The notes beneath the pieces are model-generated. The model saw only the letters and a program-made list of their open reading frames with translations. It searched no databases and was not told where the DNA came from. A stretch of 64,000 nt of DNA, from assembly GCA_963751455.1 (NCBI GenBank), contig CAVVUN010000015.1:1-64000 (forward strand), given 5' to 3'. Position 1 is the first letter of the stretch. Every line of letters starts with the position of its first letter. The DNA is from Nitrospirota bacterium. GTDB lineage: Bacteria > Nitrospirota > UBA9217. Made by a program: the position numbers and the translations under genes. Positions 17,908 through 27,907 of the stretch are shown piece by piece.

Positions 17908-19560
17908 ATGATTATCAATAAGTTGATTCTGGCTGTAGTTGCGGTATTTTCAGCAGCGGTTTTGTTGTCTGCCTGCGGAGGCGGAAGCAGCAATGGCTCT
18001 GGTGGCGCGGCCCAACCGGTCGTCAGTGCAGTTACACCGACACCGGACACAAAAGAGGTTTCCTATAATGCAGTAATTTCGGCTACATTCAGTTCGGCAA
18101 TGACAAGCTCGTCTATCACCGGCAGTTCATTCGTGCTCAGCACCGCTACCGCGACCTCAGTGTCGGGTACGGTTACCTATGACGCCCTGACGAAAAAGGC
18201 CGTCTTTGCTCCGTCCGCTGCTGAAAAGCTTGCAACTGCCACTACCTATACCGCCACGATAACGACCGGGGCGAAAGATAGCGCCGGTACGGCACTGGCA
18301 AGCAACTACTCTTGGTCTTTCAAGACAACGCACCTGGATGAATATCTTTTTGGAACCAAGGGCAAGGTGGCCACCAATGTCGGCGCCACTACGACGACTG
18401 ACGACATTGCATATGCTGTTGCCATTCAGGCGGATGGGAAAATCGTGGTCGCCGGTGACGCGACCGATTCTGTCGCAGGCGATACGCCGCGCTTTGCGCT
18501 TGCCAGATACACAACTGCGGGAGTTCTCGATACAACGTTTAACAGCACCGGAATCCAGCGGCAAGCCCACATTGGGTCGAGCACCTGGGACCAGATCAGA
18601 GCAATGGCAATTGACGCAACCGGTAAGATCGTGGTGGCGGGGTGGAGTGACGGGGACACCTTGGTTGCCCGGTATAACGCAAATGGCACTCCGGACAGCA
18701 CCTTTGGCACAGCCGGTACAGGCGTAGTGGTCGATGACCTTTCCGGCACAACCCATGATGACAGCGCATTTTCAACGGCCATTCAAACGGACGGAACCAT
18801 CATTGTAGCCGGATCCAGCGCATGTGGAGGGAGCTTCCATACTTGCCTGGCGCTGGCCCGTTATAACAGCACGACTGGAAGCAGAATCAGCGTTACTACG
18901 ACGGATATTGAAGCGACTGCCACCGGTATCCGTTCAATCGCGATTGACAGCACAGGCAGGATAGTTGCTGCCGCAGCAACCGGTGCCGACCAGGTCGGAA
19001 ACGTAGGCAAGCATATTGTTGTGGTCAGATACTCGAGCACTGGTGTTCTGGATACGTCTTTTAATGCAGCAAGTACACCGGGATATATTGTTACGAACTT
19101 GTCCACGTATGGTGATTCAGCACAAGCGATTGCGATTCAGCCGTTGGATAATAAGATCCTTGTCGCCGGCTGGGCTGGGCAGGATGCCGTTGTGCTTCGG
19201 TACAATGTAGATGGTTCGATCGACACGACCTTCGGCACTCAGGGCAGAGCAGTTACGGATATAGGCAGTGGCAACAATTACGCGCTGGCTCTTGCGCTCC
19301 AGTCCGATGGAAAGATCGTGGCTGCTGGCACCGCTCCCAATCCGCTGGACAGCGGCGACGATGTTTTTGCCTTGATGCGCTATACGGCAACCGGCACTCT
19401 TGATACGACCTTTGAGAATAACGGCGTTGCGCTGCTCAACTTTACAGCGCCGAACAACGTTGACGCGGCGCATGCGATCGCTGTTGATCCAACCAGCGGC
19501 AAGATCGTCATAGCGGGCGAGGCTGGCGGAGATTTCGGCGTCGCACGCTATGTAAAATAA
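17908..19560 (+). CDS. Surface lipoprotein with an Ig-like (SbsA/Big_5) domain and delta-60 (DUF5122) repeat beta-propeller
   Basis: Lipobox LLSAC; ISATFSSAM...YTATITTGAKD..G..LASNYSWSFKT; repeated AIQxDGKIVVAG / ARYxxxGxLDTTF units. Confidence 0.85.
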   Translation: MIINKLILAVVAVFSAAVLLSACGGGSSNGSGGAAQPVVSAVTPTPDTKEVSYNAVISATFSSAMTSSSITGSSFVLSTATATSVSGTVTYDALTKKAVFAPSAAEKLATATTYTATITTGAKDSAGTALASNYSWSFKTTHLDEYLFGTKGKVATNVGATTTTDDIAYAVAIQADGKIVVAGDATDSVAGDTPRFALARYTTAGVLDTTFNSTGIQRQAHIGSSTWDQIRAMAIDATGKIVVAGWSDGDTLVARYNANGTPDSTFGTAGTGVVVDDLSGTTHDDSAFSTAIQTDGTIIVAGSSACGGSFHTCLALARYNSTTGSRISVTTTDIEATATGIRSIAIDSTGRIVAAAATGADQVGNVGKHIVVVRYSSTGVLDTSFNAASTPGYIVTNLSTYGDSAQAIAIQPLDNKILVAGWAGQDAVVLRYNVDGSIDTTFGTQGRAVTDIGSGNNYALALALQSDGKIVAAGTAPNPLDSGDDVFALMRYTATGTLDTTFENNGVALLNFTAPNNVDAAHAIAVDPTSGKIVIAGEAGGDFGVARYVK

Positions 19561-19617: not shown

Positions 19618-19624
19618 CGCCCTT

Positions 19625-19766
19625 CTGTGAAAAGGCTGTGATTACAGAGCGGATGATGAAGGGCGGTACCAGCGCGTAACGCTCGATGGGAGAAGTGTCG
19701 AGGTGAGAAACAACTAACGGCGAGAGTTTTTGGATTGCGCAAAAATCAGTGGGAATAGTTCACCTA
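19625..19766. repeat. ~140-bp direct repeat, copy 1
   Basis: Shares GTGATTACAGAGCGGATGATGAAGGGCGGT, TCGAGGTGA, TAACGGCGAGAG and AGTGGGAATAGTTCACCTA with 21143..21285. Confidence 0.9.
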
Positions 19767-20951
19767 CGAGTGTGAAATTTCTATGAGTTCTTTCAGACGC
19801 ACTCCGTTCACGGCTCGTATCTGCTTGCCGATAGAAAACTCTTCTTTGACTCGCGAAATCACGAGTCCCTTGATTACTGCATCATCCCCATAATAGCTCC
19901 GCAACGCATGAAATCCCTTCTGCGCGTCGGCCCCCGGAGCACCCGTCAATTTCGCTTCAAGCGCGATGAACCTTCCGCCCTTCTCTACGAGGAAGTCGAC
20001 CTCCTGACCGTCGTTCGTGCGCCAATAATAAAGAGGCGGATTCGTCAGTCCTTGCGCAAGAAGGGTCCGGTAGATCTGATTGAATGCATAGGTTTCCCAG
20101 AGCGCCCCCGCCAAATGGGACTTTTCGAGCTCCTGCCACGAGAACAGTCCCGTAAGGTGCGCGGCAAGCCCGGTATCGAGGAAGTATATCTTGGGTGACT
20201 TGACGAGACGTTTGCCGATGCTCCGATGATAAGGTTCGAGCAGGAAGACGATATGAGACGCCTCCAGCACGGAAACCCAAGCCTTGATCGTATTCGGAGC
20301 GACGCCGACATCGCGGGCGAGGTCCGAGAGCGAAAGCGTTTGAGCGGTTCTGGCCGCTATTGCCCGTAAGAAGCGGTTAAAATCGCGAAGATTGCCTACG
20401 CGCAGTATATTTCTCACATCCCGCTCCAGATAGGTTGCCACGTAGGACGGGTACCAGGTCATGGGATTGATGGAATCACCTGCGTAAAGCGCCGGGAATC
20501 CGCCCTTGGCGATATACTCCTCGACTGAAGGCATGCGCCGCGAATCCGCCAATTCCTGAGCAGACAGCGATTGAAGGCTGACAATGCCGCACCGGCCTGC
20601 AAGGCTTTCGGTGAGATTGTGCATCAAATTAAAGCTCTGGGAGCCGGTTATGAAATACTGTCCCTTCTTCTTTGTTTTATCCACGATCAGCTTGATGTGG
20701 CGAAACAGGCCCGGGGCATACTGTGCCTCGTCGATAATCGCGGGAGAGGGCAGTGAGTTAAGGAAGTCGGACGGAGAATTCTCGGCATCCGAAGCTTTGG
20801 CCGGATCGTCCAGGGTCACATAGGAATAGTCCCGGAAGAGATGGTTCAGGATGCTGGTCTTGCCGACCTGACGCGCGCCGGTAACGAATACGACAGGAAA
20901 CAGGCGTGAAAAATCCCGAATCACGGTTTCCGCATTTCTTGTTATCCACAT
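19764..20951 (-). CDS. AAA_14 + DUF4143 ATPase with a C-terminal PD-(D/E)xK-like motif
   Basis: GARQVGKT, IIDEAQ, ITGS, ESLAGR, GGFP, TYLERD, KSPKIYFLDTG, YYWRT and EVDFLV..IALEAK. Confidence 0.9.
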   Translation of the reverse strand: MWITRNAETVIRDFSRLFPVVFVTGARQVGKTSILNHLFRDYSYVTLDDPAKASDAENSPSDFLNSLPSPAIIDEAQYAPGLFRHIKLIVDKTKKKGQYFITGSQSFNLMHNLTESLAGRCGIVSLQSLSAQELADSRRMPSVEEYIAKGGFPALYAGDSINPMTWYPSYVATYLERDVRNILRVGNLRDFNRFLRAIAARTAQTLSLSDLARDVGVAPNTIKAWVSVLEASHIVFLLEPYHRSIGKRLVKSPKIYFLDTGLAAHLTGLFSWQELEKSHLAGALWETYAFNQIYRTLLAQGLTNPPLYYWRTNDGQEVDFLVEKGGRFIALEAKLTGAPGADAQKGFHALRSYYGDDAVIKGLVISRVKEEFSIGKQIRAVNGVRLKELIEISHS

Positions 20952-20957
20952 GCGGAT

Positions 20958-20986
20958 ATTATGCAATTGAATTGCAAAATTGTCAA
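20958..20986 (-). promoter_or_regulatory. Sigma70 promoter with an internal palindrome; probably gives a leaderless mRNA
   Basis: TTGACA-N17-CATAAT ends 6 nt before the ATG at 20951. The palindrome TGCAAT-N3-ATTGCA lies in the spacer. Confidence 0.7.
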
Positions 20987-21093
20987 GACCTTTGCACTAT
21001 CGGGAGCATAATCTGGGGATGCGAACAGGAAGCCGTGATTCGTTGACGTCGATAGCGATGCCCTTGTACCGCATCTTGTCAACAACAAAGATT

Positions 21094-21140
21094 CGACCCC
21101 ATTAGTTTCCCGACCCCATTAGTTTCTTCGACCCCATTAG
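21094..21140. repeat. Three tandem CGACCCCATTAG units (GGGGTC-type terminal motif)
   Basis: Copies at 21094, 21111 and 21129, preceded by TTGTCAAcaaCAAAGATT. Confidence 0.85.
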
Positions 21141-21142
21141 GT

Positions 21143-21285
21143 CTCTGAAAAAGCCGTGATTACAGAGCGGATGATGAAGGGCGGTGCCAGCGTCGTGATG
21201 TTCTGTGGATAAGTTTCGAGGTGAAAAGCAACTTAACGGCGAGAGCTTTTGGATAACGCAAAAATAAGTGGGAATAGTTCACCTA
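21143..21285. repeat. ~140-bp direct repeat, copy 2
   Basis: Aligns by eye with 19625..19766, with scattered substitutions and small indels. Confidence 0.9.
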
Positions 21286-21335
21286 CTACTGTGCAACGAG
21301 GTCACTTTCCAATTCTGTTTATTACCATTAGAAAC

Positions 21336-21390
21336 TTTGAACCCGCGGATCACGCCGCAAGGCGCGACGCTGAGGATCCGCAGGTTGAAA
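21336..21390. repeat. 55-bp imperfect palindrome with AAC...GTT ends
   Basis: TTTGAACCCGCGGATC ... GATCCGCAGGTTGAAA. Confidence 0.65.
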
Positions 21391-21525
21391 TCATCATGTT
21401 GAGTAATGCACGCTAGGTATCAACGTCACCAAAGCTTCTTCTTTCCGAAATTCACTGTCAAGCATCCGGCTTTTAGGTAGCCTTCACGAAGACTCTACAA
21501 TTAAGAGACAAAGCACGCTGAGAAC

Positions 21526-21644
21526 GAACGTCCCCAAAATTTGCAATCTCCCGCTGGCTGTAACTATGTTTCTCAACCGCTTGCCTGATAGCCTTCTTGC
21601 GTTTCGTCATGCTCTTCAACTTTATCTCGCTGAATGCTCTGTTT
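21526..21644 (-). pseudogene. 3' remnant of a RAYT/TnpA-Y1-like transposase C-terminal HTH, broken at a GGGGACGTTC motif
   Basis: Translates as KRKKAIRQAVEKHSYSQREIANF, then runs into GGGGACGTTC. Confidence 0.6.
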
Positions 21645-24600
21645 CTACTTATCGTTGTCTTGGACTTTTTTTCGACGTTGCTCGATCTTACGCCTTTTTC
21701 TAAAATCACGTATTATTTCCACCTTCTTGCTATTGCTATAATTTCGAGCATTTACAAATAAATCACCAATTAAGTTTTCGTACTGTTTGTCAGACTCTTT
21801 CGTTTTCGAGCGCAAATAATAATAAGTTAATAACTTGAATAGAGTCATATCCACTAGATGAGGATTCCGAACATTTTTTACAAAATTATGTATATGTCGA
21901 GCTGCATCCCGGCCTCTAATATCAGCGTATAAGAATGTAGAAATATATTTTTCAAAGTCAGATTTGTCTCTGGCCTTTTCATCCGCCTTAATTTTTTCTC
22001 TAAAGACCACGCTAAGCTTTGTCGTTCCAATAAGCATTTTTATCCATAATTCATGAATTAAAGGCAGCACATTTCTCTGTAGTTCAAGCTCCTCATCGAG
22101 TTTAAAGCCTTCCTTCTTTTCGTTTTCAGCAATGTATCGCTCAATAAAAGACTTCCATAAAATTGCGTACGCCATTGAGCAATGAAGCAGTGATGTATAG
22201 CTACGATATTTTAAATCTGGAATTGTCGTCTCTTCCGTATTTTTTAGAACCCGAGCAGCTAAAGTCCATAACAGTTCTTTTTTTTGCTTGTCACTGATTT
22301 TGGCTTCTTTTTTTTGTATCCCTTTTTCCACAGGTATCTTTGCCAAAGCATTGTCTTGAATTTCGTCAATTTGATCCTGACTTGGTTTCGGTTTATCAGT
22401 TAGTCGAAGTAGAAAATTCTCATCGGCTTTGACTAACATTGATTGTTGGTTCTCGAATATTTCGTCAAAGGTGTGCGGAAACTGCATTATACGATTTATT
22501 ACCTCTTTAAAGTCCTTTTCCATTCTTCCAATTACGGTCTCAAGTATATCTGAACAATCCCTCTTGATGCCCGTATAATAATCAATTTCGTCAGTAAACA
22601 TTAAATAATTTTCTTCACTCATTACAAAATCTTTAAAAGTTGGATCAAAATCCATTTTACGACTTATAAAATAATGCATGAAACAGCTGAATCTGAATCT
22701 AATAAATATACCTGCATCATCTATTTCTTCGATAAATACGCCTTTGTCGATAAAGTGATCAAGAACGTCTTTTGCTTGAATAAAATCAAATTTCTTGGCT
22801 TTCAAACTGTCATCGATAAAGTCGATTAAATCGCGCGATGACATCTGATAATTTTCTGAGTTGTTTTCCAGCATTCGAAAGGCTATTTCTGCTAATAATC
22901 TTTCCTTATTGCGAAAATCAAATCTGTCAGAATATATTTCTTTACGTGCGTGTTTTTCAAATAATTTTTCGATGAAATGCTCAAGCATAGTTGCATTATT
23001 TATGGGTTGATAATTTTCCTGTTGTTCCAATATCCAAAGGAACATGGATATCGCTAATGGTGTTCGTGGAAGATTGAGCATTAAAAAGGTATCCAAAAGT
23101 TTTTCGATTTTATCTTCGACGTCAGGAGAGGGATTTTCTGAAAACCAATTTTTTATCAACAGGCGCGTTTCAGAAGAGCCGAATGATTTGATGTGTAATT
23201 TACGCAGTCCAGCATAAAAAGGGAAATTGTAAAGTTCTATCGGCACAGCTCCTTCGGCTACTTGGAAAGAAGCGCCAATCATTGTCACATTTGGCGCTTC
23301 ATCTAAAAACTTCTGAAGAGCACCTAATTGATACGAATCATATTCATTAAAACTCAGGTTATCAACTAGCAAAAGCAGTTTATGCTTTGAGCACAAGTCT
23401 TTGATAAAGGAAATGCTTATACCAAGAAATCGCGAAATTAGTGTTTCAATTCGGCTTGATTTTATCTGACGAAAATCTATATGGATTGGGATTAATCTGT
23501 GCTGCTGTATGCTCTCTGAAAGATAAACAAGGATACGATCAAGTAAAATAGATTTTCCTGACTCTTTCACTCCAAACACTATTTGGCTTGCCGGATATAA
23601 GCATAACTCTTCGATTGATACGTTTTTTTCTTTTGTCTTTTTCTCACCTTCAAAATTTATTTTTTCAACGACTTTTGGCATGACAAAAAGGCTCTTTAAC
23701 TCTCTAGGCGCTTTTGTATTTGTGTTATAAGTCAATAAGTGCTCGTTCAATTCTCCAAAATGCGTATTCGTTATAGTAATTGCTAAATCGTTTTCATAAT
23801 TTCTCAACTTCAGCTCGCCCGATGAAGGAAGTTTAAATTTACTGATTCCAAAGTCATTTCCTAAATCATTATTAGCTACATATGAATTTTTTCTATGAGA
23901 ATATCGCCGGTTTGTAACTTCGATTTCTAGTGACCCAGGGTCGAAATCAACAATTGAGTATCCGTTACTGTAATCTATACTCTTCTCTTCCACTCTAAAA
24001 CTCCAACTGCTCGGTGCCACTGACACAAATAACCCCTTATAAATGTCAGACTTTAACCAAGAAGATCCCGAGTGAACATGACCGCTGAATATAAGTTGAA
24101 AAGTATTTTCAAGCAGAGGTTCAATACACCTTCTGTCGAAATCCGCAAGCCATTCGACTGGATGATGAAGAAGAGCTATGTTAATGGTGTTATCCTTGAA
24201 GAAATTTTTTGCGGCAGTAAGTTGGCGTTCTCCAATTATTAAGTTGTGACGATCCTTGCCATCTTCATAGCTTCGCCAAGCTGAATTTAAACAAGCAATG
24301 CCTGTTTTCATGGAGCTTAGTTCTATGTTAAAAAGCGAATGGTAATTTGTCAAAATACAATTGCTTACGCCATCGTAAAATGTTTTTCCAAAAGTTTTAA
24401 AGGGTAACATTCTTTTTATTCCTTCTAGGTTCCCACTATCTATATAGTCATTGACCGCGTCGATATTATTTAATATTTGATGTAACCCTGCTTCTGACAC
24501 CTTCGAGTCGCGATCTCTCCAAATATCATGGTTTCCAGGAATAAAGAATATACGATCGTTTTTTAGCGATAATGCTTTCATGAGAGGAGCTATTACAAGC

Positions 24601-24805
24601 GTATTGACAGTCTCGTAGCAACTGTCTTATCTTTAAAGGCACTTGCACCCTTATCGATAATATCTCCCGTAAGTAAGACAATATCGAATTTTTTCTCGAT
24701 ATGGTATTTTTTAACATCTTGCAGAAATGGATCAACAACGAATGCTGTCATTTCACCAAGGTATTCGGACGAAACATGTAAATCAGATAGATGTAAAATT
24801 CTCAT
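21645..24805 (-). CDS. Calcineurin-like metallophosphoesterase fused to a STAND/NACHT-type NTPase (~1050 aa, one frameshift near 24610); candidate defence protein
   Basis: ILHLSDLH and LTGDIID in ORF 24593..24805. PGNHD, LNSAW, LLHHP, GHVH, Walker A GVKESGKS, Walker B LLLVDN and TPL in ORF 21645..24581. Visibly AT-rich. Confidence 0.82.
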
Positions 24806-24875
24806 GTCATCTCCCTTTTGCTTTTTTACAGATAAGCGTTTGATTTATACAAGTAGTACCAATAAAGGAACCTCA

Positions 24876-25100
24876 TAGGGTCAGGTCTTGGATTATCTTT
24901 TTTCTTCAAATCCCTTTATTATCTTGCTTACCGTAGTATAATGAATATCGAGATGATCCGCAATCTCTTTAAGAGTGTATCCGTATTTGACATGAGCAGC
25001 ATGAACGTGTTTGTTTCTCCAGTTGATCTTCTCGTCTGCCGAAAATTGTTTGGATAAGCGTGGCCGATTCACATATCGCTGAACTGACTAGGGTCAGGTC
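24876..25100 (-). mobile_element. RAYT/TnpA-Y1 transposase 3' remnant bracketed by two direct TAGGGTCAGGTC motifs
   Basis: Minus-strand translation QRYVNRPRLSKQF...RNKHVHAAHVKYGYTLKEIADHLDIHYTTVSKIIKGFEEKR* (stop 24893-24895). Motifs at 24876-24890 and 25089-25100. Confidence 0.75.
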
Positions 25101-25187
25101 CATATTCATGGACTTTTGAAGATTTAATTCTATTTGAGCTTTCCTGATACTCCATCACTTCGTCGTGCGCCACGCTATTCCAGTGAC

Positions 25188-25375
25188 TCATGTATGTTTA
25201 AGAAAAAGATTTCGGACCTTATTGGCTCCGATCAATTCCTTCAGCAGCGTATAATTCTTTTTCTCGTACTTGATGCGGCCCGCCGGAATCGCGGGACTGA
25301 TCCTCAGTTTCTCGGCAAATGCCCGCACCGCCTGCGCTGAATAGCAGCGGGAAAGGCCGGCCCTGGTCCATCGCT
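25188..25375 (-). pseudogene. 3' end of a HigA/ImmA-IrrE-type (HTH + peptidase) gene, copy A
   Basis: KRWTRAGLSRCYSAQAVRAFAEKLRISPAIPAGRIKYEKKNYTLLKELIGANKVRNLFLKHT*. Truncated upstream at a GCAGGCTGTTGAAAA IS/MITE-like end. Confidence 0.65.
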
Positions 25376-25499
25376 TAGCAGGCTGTTGAAAACCCTCCGT
25401 TCACCCTTCGTCCTTGGAGCCCGAAAAGGGACGTTGTGACCGAAATGGACTACAGTTCTCCGATATCAGTTACAGAGCGTAAGCTGCGATGCAGATATC

Positions 25500-25820
25500 C
25501 TATGCAGTCTTCGCGAGAATAATCCTGCCGATTTGCTTTTTCGAAGAGCCCAGAGCAATGATTGACCTCACAATAAGGTCTAGAGACACGGAAGATTCTG
25601 CACGCTCGATCTTGGCAACTCGCGACTGGCTCGACTTGATTTTCTCAGCAACCTGCACCTGCGTAAGATGTTTTTTCTTCCGCAATTCCTGGAAATAATT
25701 CGAGAGGGCTAGTTTCATCTCGATGTACTCTTCCTCCTCACGGCTCAATTGAAGAAAATCAGAAACAGAGCCGACTTTCCAACCCTGCTTCTCAAGTCTT
25801 TTAATCTTATCTTTTTTCAT
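25500..25820 (-). CDS. XRE/HTH antitoxin
   Basis: GWKVGSVSDFLQL, LTQVQVAEKIKSSQSRVAKIE. RBS GAGGTG; downstream of the toxin gene. Confidence 0.85.
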   Translation of the reverse strand: MKKDKIKRLEKQGWKVGSVSDFLQLSREEEEYIEMKLALSNYFQELRKKKHLTQVQVAEKIKSSQSRVAKIERAESSVSLDLIVRSIIALGSSKKQIGRIILAKTA

Positions 25821-25831
25821 GATTATCACCT

Positions 25832-26161
25832 CTAACATTTATCATAAGCAGCAATTCGTTTTTTGCAGATATTGATTATATTCTTAGGCGTTTTCTGACT
25901 TTTCTTTTCAAAAACGTCCAATATTAAGATCGCATCGTCATCCAACCGGCAAATGATTCTCCATGTCTTGTCCTTATCGTTGATCCTGAGTTCATGACAA
26001 CGCGCGCAAATCGATGTCATGGGCCTGGAATGTGGTAGTGACAAGCGTTCGCCACTTTGCAGGCATCGCAAAAGATACCCTGCCTCGATCCGCGCGTCCG
26101 AAGATAGTGGCGGGGTTTTTACTTCACCATGCAACCAGACAAGTGGTTTTGGCTTCATCAT
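25832..26161 (-). CDS. RelE/ParE-superfamily (Gp49/DUF891-like) toxin
   Basis: KPLVWLHGEVKTPP, LPHSRPM, CHELRI, WRII and VFEKKSQKTP. Toxin-first (HigBA-like) order. Confidence 0.85.
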   Translation of the reverse strand: MMKPKPLVWLHGEVKTPPLSSDARIEAGYLLRCLQSGERLSLPHSRPMTSICARCHELRINDKDKTWRIICRLDDDAILILDVFEKKSQKTPKNIINICKKRIAAYDKC

Positions 26162-26169
26162 CTCTACTT

Positions 26170-26198
26170 ACTATATGTCATATCTGACATAATGTCAA
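26170..26198 (-). promoter_or_regulatory. TA promoter with a palindromic operator
   Basis: TTGACA-N17-TATAGT; palindrome TATGTCA-TATC-TGACATA (26174-26191) in the spacer. Confidence 0.75.
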
Positions 26199-26222
26199 AC
26201 ACATAATTACATAAGACGAACC

Positions 26223-26339
26223 CGTAAAAAGTCAAGATTTGCCACAGAGGACACAGAGAGTACAGAGATAAAACCTTAAAAAGTTAAAGATTTTCTCTGA
26301 GTCCTCCGTGACCTCTGTGGCTGAAAAAGAGTTTTTACG
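26223..26339. repeat. Nested palindromic MITE-like element
   Basis: Outer CGTAAAAAGTC/GAGTTTTTACG. Inner 9-nt-periodic GCCACAGAG-GACACAGAG-AGTACAGAG ... CTCTGAGTC-CTCCGTGAC-CTCTGTGGC. Confidence 0.7.
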
Positions 26340-26403
26340 AATCTATTACATAAAGACGGTTTGGTTTTAAGGTATTATCAAAGAGCACCTTAGAGAGCCA
26401 CCA

Positions 26404-26418
26404 TAGGGACAGGTCTTG
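26404..26418. repeat. TAGGGACAGGTCTTG motif (same family as 24876 and 25089)
   Basis: One mismatch to TAGGGTCAGGTCTTG; followed by cggcTTGACA. Confidence 0.7.
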
Positions 26419-26510
26419 CGGCTTGACAAATGCCTTCTTCCGCTCACTTCAATGGTTTAACGACGTGGTGTCCTCAATATCATTTAAGTCTCGGACAACG
26501 ACATCAATAT

Positions 26511-27539
26511 TTAGCCTGTCGTCATATGCTGCCTGAATTCCTTCCGCGCTTTTGCAGATTCCTTGCACTTTTTCACTTTGGTCAACTTAACGCCGAGCAG
26601 CGAAAGCACGGGCTGCAGGATAACTGAGGCTTCATCGCTTTCAACCATAACTTCTCGAGGGCAGATCTTATTTTTCTCAACCGCACTCAATAAATACTCC
26701 GGGAGCTGACTCTGGTAAGAATGCGGCGGAGCGATCTGGCTATCAAGTATAAATCCCGATCCGGTATCGATTATCATCAGAAATATCAAATAAAAGGGCC
26801 TTCCCGATTCTTTCACCGGCATGTTCTCCAGAGCATACGAGAATTCCCAGATCCCCGACTTTTTCGCGTTTGATGTCAATCGCATCACGCGACTTTCATC
26901 GATTGCACAACGCTCAATCGGATTGGGCTGAATCGGGTCGGGTTTGAGCCACTCGTCGGTCCATTGGTTCTTTTCGTCTCCGGGCTTCTTAACGCGAACA
27001 AGATAGTGGCCCGGGGTGCGGGATTTGAGAATATCCATGCTCTCTTTGCATCGCACGCAAACATTCATGGCCTGATCGAGGACAAGACAGAGAAAATCGG
27101 CGTCCCCCGCGCTGAGAAACCAAGGGAAGTATCCGGGAGTCAAATTGCGAAAACACGGATATGCTTTCGTCCCGTGAAACGTCAGGGCTAACGCGTTTAT
27201 GACGGACAGATCTTCCTGTTCCAGCACGCTTTTATCATTGAAGGTAACGCTGAGGCATTTCTGCGCCAGGAAGTCGTCGAATGCATCCGATGAGGAATTT
27301 CCTCTCAAAAGGCGCTGATAGCTGGAAAACCCCTCAGTCCCTTGATATACGATTATTCCCAATTGCTGCCCGAGATTTCCGATGATGCAGCAGTAGCCGA
27401 TCTCGCCTGTTGCAGGATTTTGTACGCCGAATACCTCTTCGTCTGTCATCCATTGCCAGCACGCGAGTTTTCGGAACTTGGTTGATAAATTATAGAGTGA
27501 TTTCCATTGTTCAATCGTCGGTTCTGTTGTTTGAGACAT
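26511..27539 (-). CDS. Conserved hypothetical protein (DUF7309/DUF6930-like)
   Basis: WQWMTDEEVFGVQNPATGEIGYCCIIG..G, PCFR..PGYFPW. RBS GAGGTGAG. Confidence 0.7.
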   Translation of the reverse strand: MSQTTEPTIEQWKSLYNLSTKFRKLACWQWMTDEEVFGVQNPATGEIGYCCIIGNLGQQLGIIVYQGTEGFSSYQRLLRGNSSSDAFDDFLAQKCLSVTFNDKSVLEQEDLSVINALALTFHGTKAYPCFRNLTPGYFPWFLSAGDADFLCLVLDQAMNVCVRCKESMDILKSRTPGHYLVRVKKPGDEKNQWTDEWLKPDPIQPNPIERCAIDESRVMRLTSNAKKSGIWEFSYALENMPVKESGRPFYLIFLMIIDTGSGFILDSQIAPPHSYQSQLPEYLLSAVEKNKICPREVMVESDEASVILQPVLSLLGVKLTKVKKCKESAKARKEFRQHMTTG

Positions 27540-27559
27540 CCGGCTCACCTCATCACCAT

Positions 27560-27709
27560 TTATGTATGGTTAAGAAAAAGATTTCGGACCTTATTGGCTC
27601 CGATCAATTCCTTCAGCAGCGCATAATTCTTTTTCTCGTACCTTATGCGTCCCTCCGGAATTGCGGGACTGATCCTCAGGTCCTCGGCAAATGCCCGCAC
27701 CGCCTGCGC
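27560..27709 (-). pseudogene. 3' end of a HigA/ImmA-IrrE-type gene, copy B
   Basis: 148-bp match to 25190..25337 with 9 substitutions by my count; ends ...VRNLFLNHT*. Confidence 0.7.
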
Positions 27710-27907
27710 GACCGAAATCGACGAGAGGCGACAAGTGAGGAGTCGTTACAGCTATCAATTACGGGACGTAATCTGTGGCAGCGATTATGGATTCCACTTT
27801 GCAGACTACAGGAAGAAAGATTGCCCAGTCGAGCAAAGTATAGTAGAATTCCTCTTCAAGATAAAGAGTAAAATTATCAAGCGGCAAGGATTTGAGATCA
27901 AATTTCC

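Follow-up and report, generated by a model that had tools for sequence, protein, structure and literature searches.

How could a row of toxin-antitoxin (TA) and candidate defence genes be assembled at a site that holds no integrase? This question is raised by an island at about positions 19,620 to 27,710 of the first 64,000 nt (the window) of contig C15 (CAVVUN010000015.1) in a Nitrospirota genome of 5.72 Mb in 15 contigs, where the cargo genes, all on the minus strand, lie between a DUF5122 gene and SprT. A sequence-only reading of the window had proposed that cassettes were serially inserted either by recombination between conserved gene tails or by a Y1 HUH transposase acting in trans; the evidence below favours both in a single event. 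The short motif that recurs in the island is the terminal inverted repeat (TIR) of TIRtrons, and we propose that the island was built as a stack of TIRtron-end junctions, each made at one end by the TIRtron transposase (TIRYT) and completed by homologous recombination, much as for ISCR1. From sequence comparison we put the probability of this reading at roughly 55%. Its parts are known; their coupling, of TIRtron ends to displaced anchors, is apparently undescribed and is supported statistically in one bacterial family. No description of TIR-anchored cargo capture was found in the literature searched, largely without subscription papers. Below, C-numbers are contigs of the window's own genome, G-numbers are other genomes of the family and L-numbers are examined regions; statements on published work refer to the accessible text of the papers cited.

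The island motifs are TIRtron ends

The four main motifs of the window scored 20.0-30.6 bits with a weight matrix trained on 23 ends that flank TIRYT genes outside the window, and sites of at least 19 bits numbered 71 in the genome compared to 0 in the reversed genome. Of 21 pattern hits for two other end types, 13 were kept after five judged to be chance had been dropped with three uncertain ones, including that at window position 27763, which brought the genome total to 84 TIRs. The genome has 33 Y1_Tnp matches, the long ones of which have a C-terminal helix-turn-helix (HTH) and sit between inverted repeats. All five intact TIRYT copies examined, which lie outside the window, exceeded the Pfam Y1_Tnp cut-off, and one of two exceeded that of NF047646, with H-x-H and Y---NP visible; a C-terminal HTH (HTH_23, HTH_28 or Bac_DnaA_C) was found at E<=0.01 in four of the five, in some under the curated cut-off. 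Nine adjacent inward TIR pairs in the genome enclose a TIRYT gene, and TIR cores of the main family match the consensus GGGGWSAS at 7/8 positions (families B-D at fewer). The island motif is thus the TIR of TIRtrons, whose transposase is a Y1 HUH enzyme that by these features belongs to TnpA-REP subclass 2.1.

These elements look active. Five full family-A1 TIRtrons, each with both TIRs, occupy separate loci with differing flanks and are 96-98% identical (19-36 differences in 925 nt in three pairwise comparisons). By eye, no direct repeat was seen in the flanks of 10 elements, and no target consensus was evident in ~10 TIR junctions. The outer edge of the TIR has a signature of its own: at least 8 bases immediately outside the TIR are reiterated at 12/71 ends of this genome versus 4/2130 control sites, and at 10/95 ends versus 7/2910 control sites in other phyla. 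The three-fold motif noticed earlier at 21094-21144 is present and is an instance of this reiterated outer edge.

Within the window, the motif copies described previously at 24878, 25091 and 26406 (plus strand) were recovered, as were the co-orientation of the cargo, the MITE (a miniature inverted-repeat transposable element), the Gp49 (RelE-like)/HTH pair and the DUF4143 ATPase; what had been missed is the end of a MITE (25374-25410) and TIRs of two further types, on the plus strand at 25428 and on the minus strand at 21534. The TIRs point away from the STAND gene (five plus and two minus, counting the uncertain site at 27763), and no inward TIR pair encloses any cargo block in the window as a composite transposon would. 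The window holds only partial TIRYT genes (Table 1). Their presumed homology as a pair of leftovers was not borne out at DNA level, as the two pieces show 59 differences in 122 nt and the second lacks a gene end.

Identical TIR types occur in named Nitrospirota contigs. Among the matches listed for 79 GTDB loci (127 found), 97 TIRs comprised 38 in miniature inverted pairs, 7 adjoining a TIRYT gene, 44 facing other sequence and 8 at contig edges.

Several observations concern element ends in their own right. The miniature inverted TIR pairs from other phyla (L030-L108) are 35-140 nt long, and the inward TIR pair of L052, spaced by ~5.2 kb and lacking a TIRYT close to either TIR, is a candidate composite element. 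Two different TIRs, at C15:787221 and C15:1324718, have joined the 5' end of one TIRYT family at an identical base, which suggests a preferred target. Homology begins at about the same base in window 27709-27817, C8:239710, C3:64758 and C15:792223, with the TIR-like core at 27763, suggesting another element end. At C9:438619-439935, a 91-bp direct repeat (94.5%) on both sides of a 1.3-kb multi-copy element may be a long target duplication.

Some TIRs separate a truncated and a continuing copy of one sequence

The island and other loci share a recurring layout, in the order truncated copy (X', the displaced anchor), TIR facing cargo, cargo and continuing copy (X). In the window, a 155-bp repeat with 85% identity (19624-19777 and 21142-21296) has one copy cut by the TIR at 21099 and the other following the DUF4143 cargo. 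This anchor has just two copies in the genome and no full-length match in 63 family genomes; it was rejected as a mobile repeat or RNA, since beyond those two copies only 24-31-nt matches were found, in 4/63 family genomes. An Rfam search gave two chance-level matches, both under gathering scores.

In this genome the layout also involves the 5' end of hsdM (208 bp at 95.7%), which is cut 9 nt away from the core, a 76-bp repeat without mismatches that encloses a TIRtron and 2.2 kb more, and the 5' end of a methyltransferase gene, presumably rsmE. The earlier statement that only 3' ends survive therefore holds inside the window but not at other loci, where 5' ends are displaced. Truncated anchors mostly stop 9-12 nt outside the TIR core.

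The second repeat of the island is a 148-nt sequence (25190-25337 and 27562-27709, 94%), the 3' end of a HigA-type antitoxin gene with a Peptidase_M78 (IrrE-like) domain. The duplicated 3' ends are real, and full-length donor genes were found at C3:63299-64501 and C8:237481-238683. Tail B, however, is not the cassette leftover it was taken for but the remnant of an internal deletion in a unit that is intact on C8: window 26383-27709 corresponds to C8:236306-237630 and window 27709-27817 to C8:239602-239710. Of the claim that each cargo block is bracketed by its own homologous pair, what stands is that two real repeat pairs bracket cargo; the STAND gene has none, sitting between unrelated TIRYT pieces with TIR junctions present and an anchor pair absent.

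To assess the layout statistically we used 33 of 55 local repeat pairs, having dropped 22 that overlapped TIRYT genes, contained TIRs or were multi-copy. The predicted layout occurred in 4/33 pairs compared to a permutation mean of 0.58 (p=0.002).

The layout recurs in relatives

We then turned to 60 regions from 14 long-contig genomes of the family, which cover most of 111 pattern hits, with a threshold of 17 bits (null 0). Nine of 115 TIRs (69 pairs, 6 genomes) had the predicted layout, with offsets of 6-21 nt, where 0.31-0.53 were expected (p=0.0002), and only one TIR pointed away. When pairs of <80% identity and one TIR-headed duplicate were removed, 6 were observed versus 0.2-0.3 expected, and 7 further regions added one more predicted case and none pointing away. 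Overall, predicted cases outnumbered those pointing away by 13 to 4 (p=0.025), and the layout was found at 13/199 TIRs versus 5/337 ends of other insertion sequences (IS) or MITEs (Fisher p=0.002). Among the cases, a 5' end is cut short and accompanied by TA cargo at L231 and L258, a 3' end is cut short at L270 as in the higA tail of the window, and at L220 three alleles of a single gene have been displaced one after another; the gene assignments at these four loci are our assumption.

In five pairs of coding anchors, X' and X differ at 40 silent and 17 replacement codons (9:0 for hsdM), a silent-site bias (40/57) with p ~1e-6 against the 0.38 that we estimate for decay after duplication. Since the coding pairs differ mainly at silent sites, most are two alleles that diverged as working genes and were later joined.

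Duplicated cargo units, too, have a TIR as one boundary. The DUF4143 unit (window 19786-21108) matches C3:54823-56144 at 98.3% and the DUF7309 unit (window 26383-27709) matches C8:236306-237630 at 97.7%, with the TIR at the same end in both copies and far ends that are not TIRs. Among 60 low-copy dispersed duplicates, in a survey that left out contig C7, TIRYT-rich hits and multi-copy hits, only these two had an inward TIR at the same end of both copies. DUF4143 homologues in family genomes are only 40-45% identical. A 771-nt TIR-headed TA unit, which we take to be VapBC, lies at different sites in two genera, and the homology between them begins 10 nt outside the core.

Where the cargo copies differ, the changes are concentrated in the 100 nt directly inside the TIR (11/18 in window 20990-21099 and 9/24 in 26406-26500), while the coding parts are almost identical, which would point to gene conversion or a mosaic history. 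TIR-proximal hypermutation as a general rule was rejected because full elements have only 1-2 of their 19-36 differences in the first 100 nt.

A model for one-ended capture of cargo

In HUH chemistry the enzyme is left on the 5' end at the nick, and a 3'-OH can attack the enzyme-bound end. We propose that TIRYT transposases encoded elsewhere in the genome act in trans on island TIRs, linking resident DNA to a single TIR at its outer edge, with the far end closed by homologous recombination in a shared anchor. The enzyme would nick ~9-12 nt outside the core and stay on the 5' end of the element strand, which would extend across the cargo and any second TIR and reach into an anchor that the recipient also has. 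Attack on this nick by a 3'-OH within X would create the junction of X' with the TIR. If the attacking end lay downstream on the same strand, the product would be a circle of TIR, cargo and X' that enters the recipient X by one crossover; if it lay in the recipient, direct strand transfer would be finished by RecA in X. Both routes would leave the identical product, X' joined to TIR, cargo and X. In the window, the model would account for the DUF4143 unit with its 155-bp anchor, and the higA tails around DUF7309 and RelE/HTH could be explained by further assuming that a MITE inserted later, that another TIR junction formed and that a deletion took place.

Several results weigh against this reading. 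A first flank-repeat test with shifted controls was not significant (6/84 TIRs versus 6/168 control sites); the 70-nt tolerance of the second test was chosen after a 65-nt case was known, and with 45 nt the count is 3/33; and three pairs in this genome have the TIR pointing away. Because the 155-bp anchor is non-coding, the allele (silent-site) test does not apply to it, and between the higA tails of the window and C8 there are 4 silent and 6 replacement changes, a pattern in keeping with decay rather than separate alleles. The clustering of differences next to the TIR means that 98% identity does not date the junction. No clean case was found at 76 TIRs from other phyla, mostly in short-contig assemblies, the one hit being itself a TIR-containing duplicate (controls 12/273), and the partner copy predicted on the inner side of the outlier TIR G009:C4:113190 was not found over 19 kb. 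Among segments shared between regions of relatives only 1/74 was TIR-headed in both, and relatives share an accessory gene pool, so the layout events are not fully independent.

Other routes to the same island

In one alternative account, TIRtrons only delete: tandem anchors and cargo would have arisen first by ordinary or homology-facilitated illegitimate recombination, and TIRs that landed later would have cut the neighbouring copy by adjacent deletion. TIR outer edges do truncate things that have no partner (the TIRYT genes of the window, an integron integrase on C1 that retains profile positions 2-269 of 315, and the G009 anchor), MITE-size repeats are likewise enriched near TA genes (22/61, p=0.006), and displacement arrays without any transposase have been described (PMC5361080). 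Deletion alone, however, predicts partners equally on both sides of the TIR, where relatives show 9 versus 1; it leaves unexplained the cargo duplicates that start at a TIR at separate loci, and it requires earlier tandem copies of ordinary genes. We therefore regard it as rather unlikely.

The 55-bp palindrome of the island raises the possibility of a decayed integron array, in which cassettes would have been inserted at attC sites by IntI in trans before TIRtrons moved in. The palindrome belongs to a 19-copy family with AAC/GTT outer boxes, a bulged stem and no Rfam match, which we call attC-like on the box pattern that we take to be that of attC. Seven of the 19 lie within 1 kb of a TIR, a zone that makes up 2% of the genome. 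The claim that no integrase is present holds for the island but not for the genome, as integron integrase matches exceed the cut-off at C1:554479 and C2:447629; TIGR02249 has no match in the window and has matches on C1, C2, C3 and far off on C15. No attC-like site closes any of the four cargo blocks, the sole one in the island follows only a short remnant, and the duplicated units end at TIRs rather than attC. In the regions from relatives, 0/4 attC-like hits lay within 1 kb of a TIR, in a search whose model came from this genome and may be insensitive. An integron origin of the island is accordingly improbable.

Two observations concern integrons and TIRtrons more generally. A same-strand TIR lies 19-761 nt downstream of six attC-like sites (C15:787327, C1:556201, C1:394263, C1:395140, C8:185596 and window 21336), and TIRtrons may favour integron arrays. 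At L022:11958-13286 (C1:553957-555285), the C-terminus of an integron integrase is cut by a reiterated TIRtron outer edge, with an attC-like site on the other side of the TIRtron.

Recombination purely from tail to tail, in which cargo is swapped between its own homologous leftovers and the motif plays no role, draws on the two real repeat pairs that bracket cargo but is largely refuted by breakpoints that coincide with TIR outer edges far above chance; with RAYT pieces too dissimilar to recombine and tail B a deletion remnant, we consider it very improbable. An assembly artefact or strain chimera is hardly credible despite a contamination estimate of 5.37% and contigs that duplicate others at 86-96%, since the copies diverged in patterned ways, IS copies lack indels and the layout recurs in independent genomes.

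Relation to known systems

TIRtrons and their TIRYT (Di Nocera et al. 2013, PMC3733652) correspond to TnpA-REP subclass 2.1 (Quentin et al. 2018, PMC6006769) and to RAYT group 1 (Bertels et al. 2017, PMC5581495). The elements studied here resemble published TIRtrons in having a Y1 HUH enzyme with Y---NP and a C-terminal HTH between GGGGWSAS-like inverted repeats and in occurring as solo, dimeric and grouped TIRs (PMC3733652). The accessible text of the three papers gives no mechanism or cargo for TIRtrons; that of Quentin et al. notes that autonomous mobility lacks formal evidence and that copies within a genome have little similarity, and Bertels et al. give a group 1 duplication rate of 6.2%. 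In contrast, this genome has five copies of 96-98% identity and cargo duplicates headed by a TIR, along with displaced anchors and an outer edge of 9-12 nt. Quentin et al. found subclass 2.1 in 14.9% of their sampled strains (PMC6006769). The authors who put forward a link between this subclass and diversifying prochlorosin loci went on to qualify that link (10.1101/2020.03.09.984088).

A close parallel to one-ended capture is ISCR1, for which a circle entering a shared anchor by one crossover has been modelled (PMC7707992, PMC3575428). Both have an HUH enzyme, and in the layout of their products both show one fixed and one variable end, no target duplication and a duplicated anchor, which in complex class 1 integrons arises by homologous entry into a shared anchor and here would arise likewise. 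The systems differ in that the present enzyme is an IS200-fold Y1 with inverted ends, whereas ISCR1 is IS91-like with dissimilar ori and ter ends; many anchors are used here compared to one fixed 3'-CS there, and the transposase gene is absent from the cargo unit. Type VI secretion effector-immunity (and rhs) arrays likewise pair a homologous anchor with a non-homologous junction at the opposite end and leave orphan gene ends behind, and homology-facilitated illegitimate recombination has been proposed for the effector-immunity arrays (PMC5361080; also PMC8189183). The direct-transfer route of our model would be a site-directed version of that process. Their second junction is tied to no known site or enzyme in the accessible text, whereas here it lies at a defined transposase end. 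With integrons and solo attC sites the island shares co-oriented TA and defence cargo, one attC-like hairpin for its four cargo blocks and intI elsewhere in the genome; unlike integrons, its cargo is bounded by TIRs and anchors and the locus has no intI or array.

More broadly, TIRYTs could tentatively be viewed as an overlooked gene-capture system that acts in trans on solo TIRs and serially stacks accessory and defence genes before almost any shared sequence. If so, this would explain how integrase-free defence hotspots gain genes, make the solo TIR a search motif for new TA and anti-phage candidates, and provide an ISCR-like route to defence islands run by a large, widespread and little-studied transposase subclass. 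This family of genomes offers active-looking elements, a predicted cut position and a testable product layout.

Features and cargo of the island

Table 1. Features of the island in window coordinates, with strand and basis or remark.
Feature	Position	Strand	Basis or remark
Anchor X, continuing copy of 155-bp repeat	19624-19777	-	reads on into terminator region facing DUF5122 gene
AAA_14 + DUF4143 ATPase cargo	19764-20966	-	PADLOC candidate PDC-S01; near-identical copy on C3
TIRtron end, family B, core 21099, outer edge reiterated three times	21075-21144	-	30.6 bits
Displaced anchor X', ends at outer edge of TIR block	21142-21296	-	repeat comparison
55-bp attC-like hairpin after cassette-like 3' remnant ending in stop codons	21336-21390	-	19-copy family, DNA fold
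TIRtron end, other type, core 21534; truncates TIRYT fragment	21510-21540	-	comparison with other ends
TIRYT gene, internal piece without gene end	21543-21645	-	tblastx versus intact copies
Metallophosphoesterase-STAND NTPase cargo, frameshift near 24600	21645-24805	-	PDC-S60; a DS8-like match is weak and under the cut-off
Right-hand TIR of a TIRtron, core 24878	24868-24900	+	21.7 bits
TIRYT gene 3' end (C-terminal HTH), cut by outer edge of next TIR	24902-25081	-	HTH_23 over cut-off
TIRtron end, core 25091, faces higA tail A	25081-25110	+	25.4 bits
higA/IrrE-like tail A, displaced 3' end	25190-25376	-	post-stop sequence resembles C3 copy
Truncated MITE end between tail A and next TIR	25374-25427	+	multi-copy matches
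TIRtron end, family C; same end flanks intact TIRYT at C9:160374	25428-25451	+	end comparison
Gp49/RelE-like toxin + HTH_3 antitoxin cargo	25500-26161	-	domain matches
MITE, up to 17 genome matches	26212-26346		genome comparison
TIRtron end, core 26406, outer edge reiterated two-fold; homology with C8 stops here	26383-26431	+	20.0 bits
DUF7309/DUF6930 gene cargo; in C8 copy follows intact higA	26511-27548	-	domain and genome matches
higA/IrrE-like tail B, remnant after deletion of most of higBA	27562-27709	-	C8 comparison
Segment that lies upstream of higB in C8 and C3, here joined to tail B through the deletion	27709-27817	-	genome comparison

By profile matches, the candidate defence and TA content of the island consists of PDC-S60, which is broken, PDC-S01 and the Gp49/HTH pair, and by these known or candidate genes it would count as a defence island. 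The phosphoesterase-STAND gene had been described as intact; it is split into 24593-24805 and 21645-24581, which correspond to PADLOC PDC-S60 positions 1-55 and 71-1022. Assembly noise is an unlikely source of this frameshift, as the assembly has 0 indels over 10 IS copies of 1521 columns. The GC content of the cargo ranges from 35% (STAND gene) to 54% (DUF4143 gene).

A link between TIRs and TA genes extends beyond the island. Sixteen of 61 TA-type genes (five families) lie within 5 kb of a TIR, a zone that covers 7% of the genome (p=3e-6), compared to 4/61 near IS-size repeats. Of 277 open reading frames called in 20 TIR regions, 181 were scanned with Pfam, and the matches included RES, PIN, Fic, MazF, HEPN/MNT, AbiE, Z1, HsdM, Wadjet JetA, ABC-3C and cGAS-like, together with ordinary accessory genes. 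One TIR island encodes a single protein with SIR2_2, nSTAND1, histidine kinase and receiver domains (L016:4758-8078; C12, ~206.8-210.1 kb), and reverse transcriptase genes that we infer to be group II intron-like adjoin TIR clusters at L021:2201-3511 and L024:6988-8349.

Genomic setting

No genome of the same genus was present among the 40 relatives sampled. Other window genes were found beside SprT at 0/66 loci (9 genome and 57 metagenome loci, only 24 of the 66 being at least 8 kb), and the best full-length identity among the 57 metagenome loci was 65%. In another genus (G011:C1, 219-233 kb; L219 / L003), a TIRtron end and restriction-like genes lie within ~14 kb upstream of SprT without synteny. 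Long stretches of contigs C7 and C10 and of parts of C2 and C12 also occur on other contigs at 86-96%, which may stem from a second strain or from old duplications. The island is bordered by a Big_5 and DUF5122 beta-propeller protein (window 17908-19560), which has paralogues at C15:1548290, C3:177695 and C12:438745.

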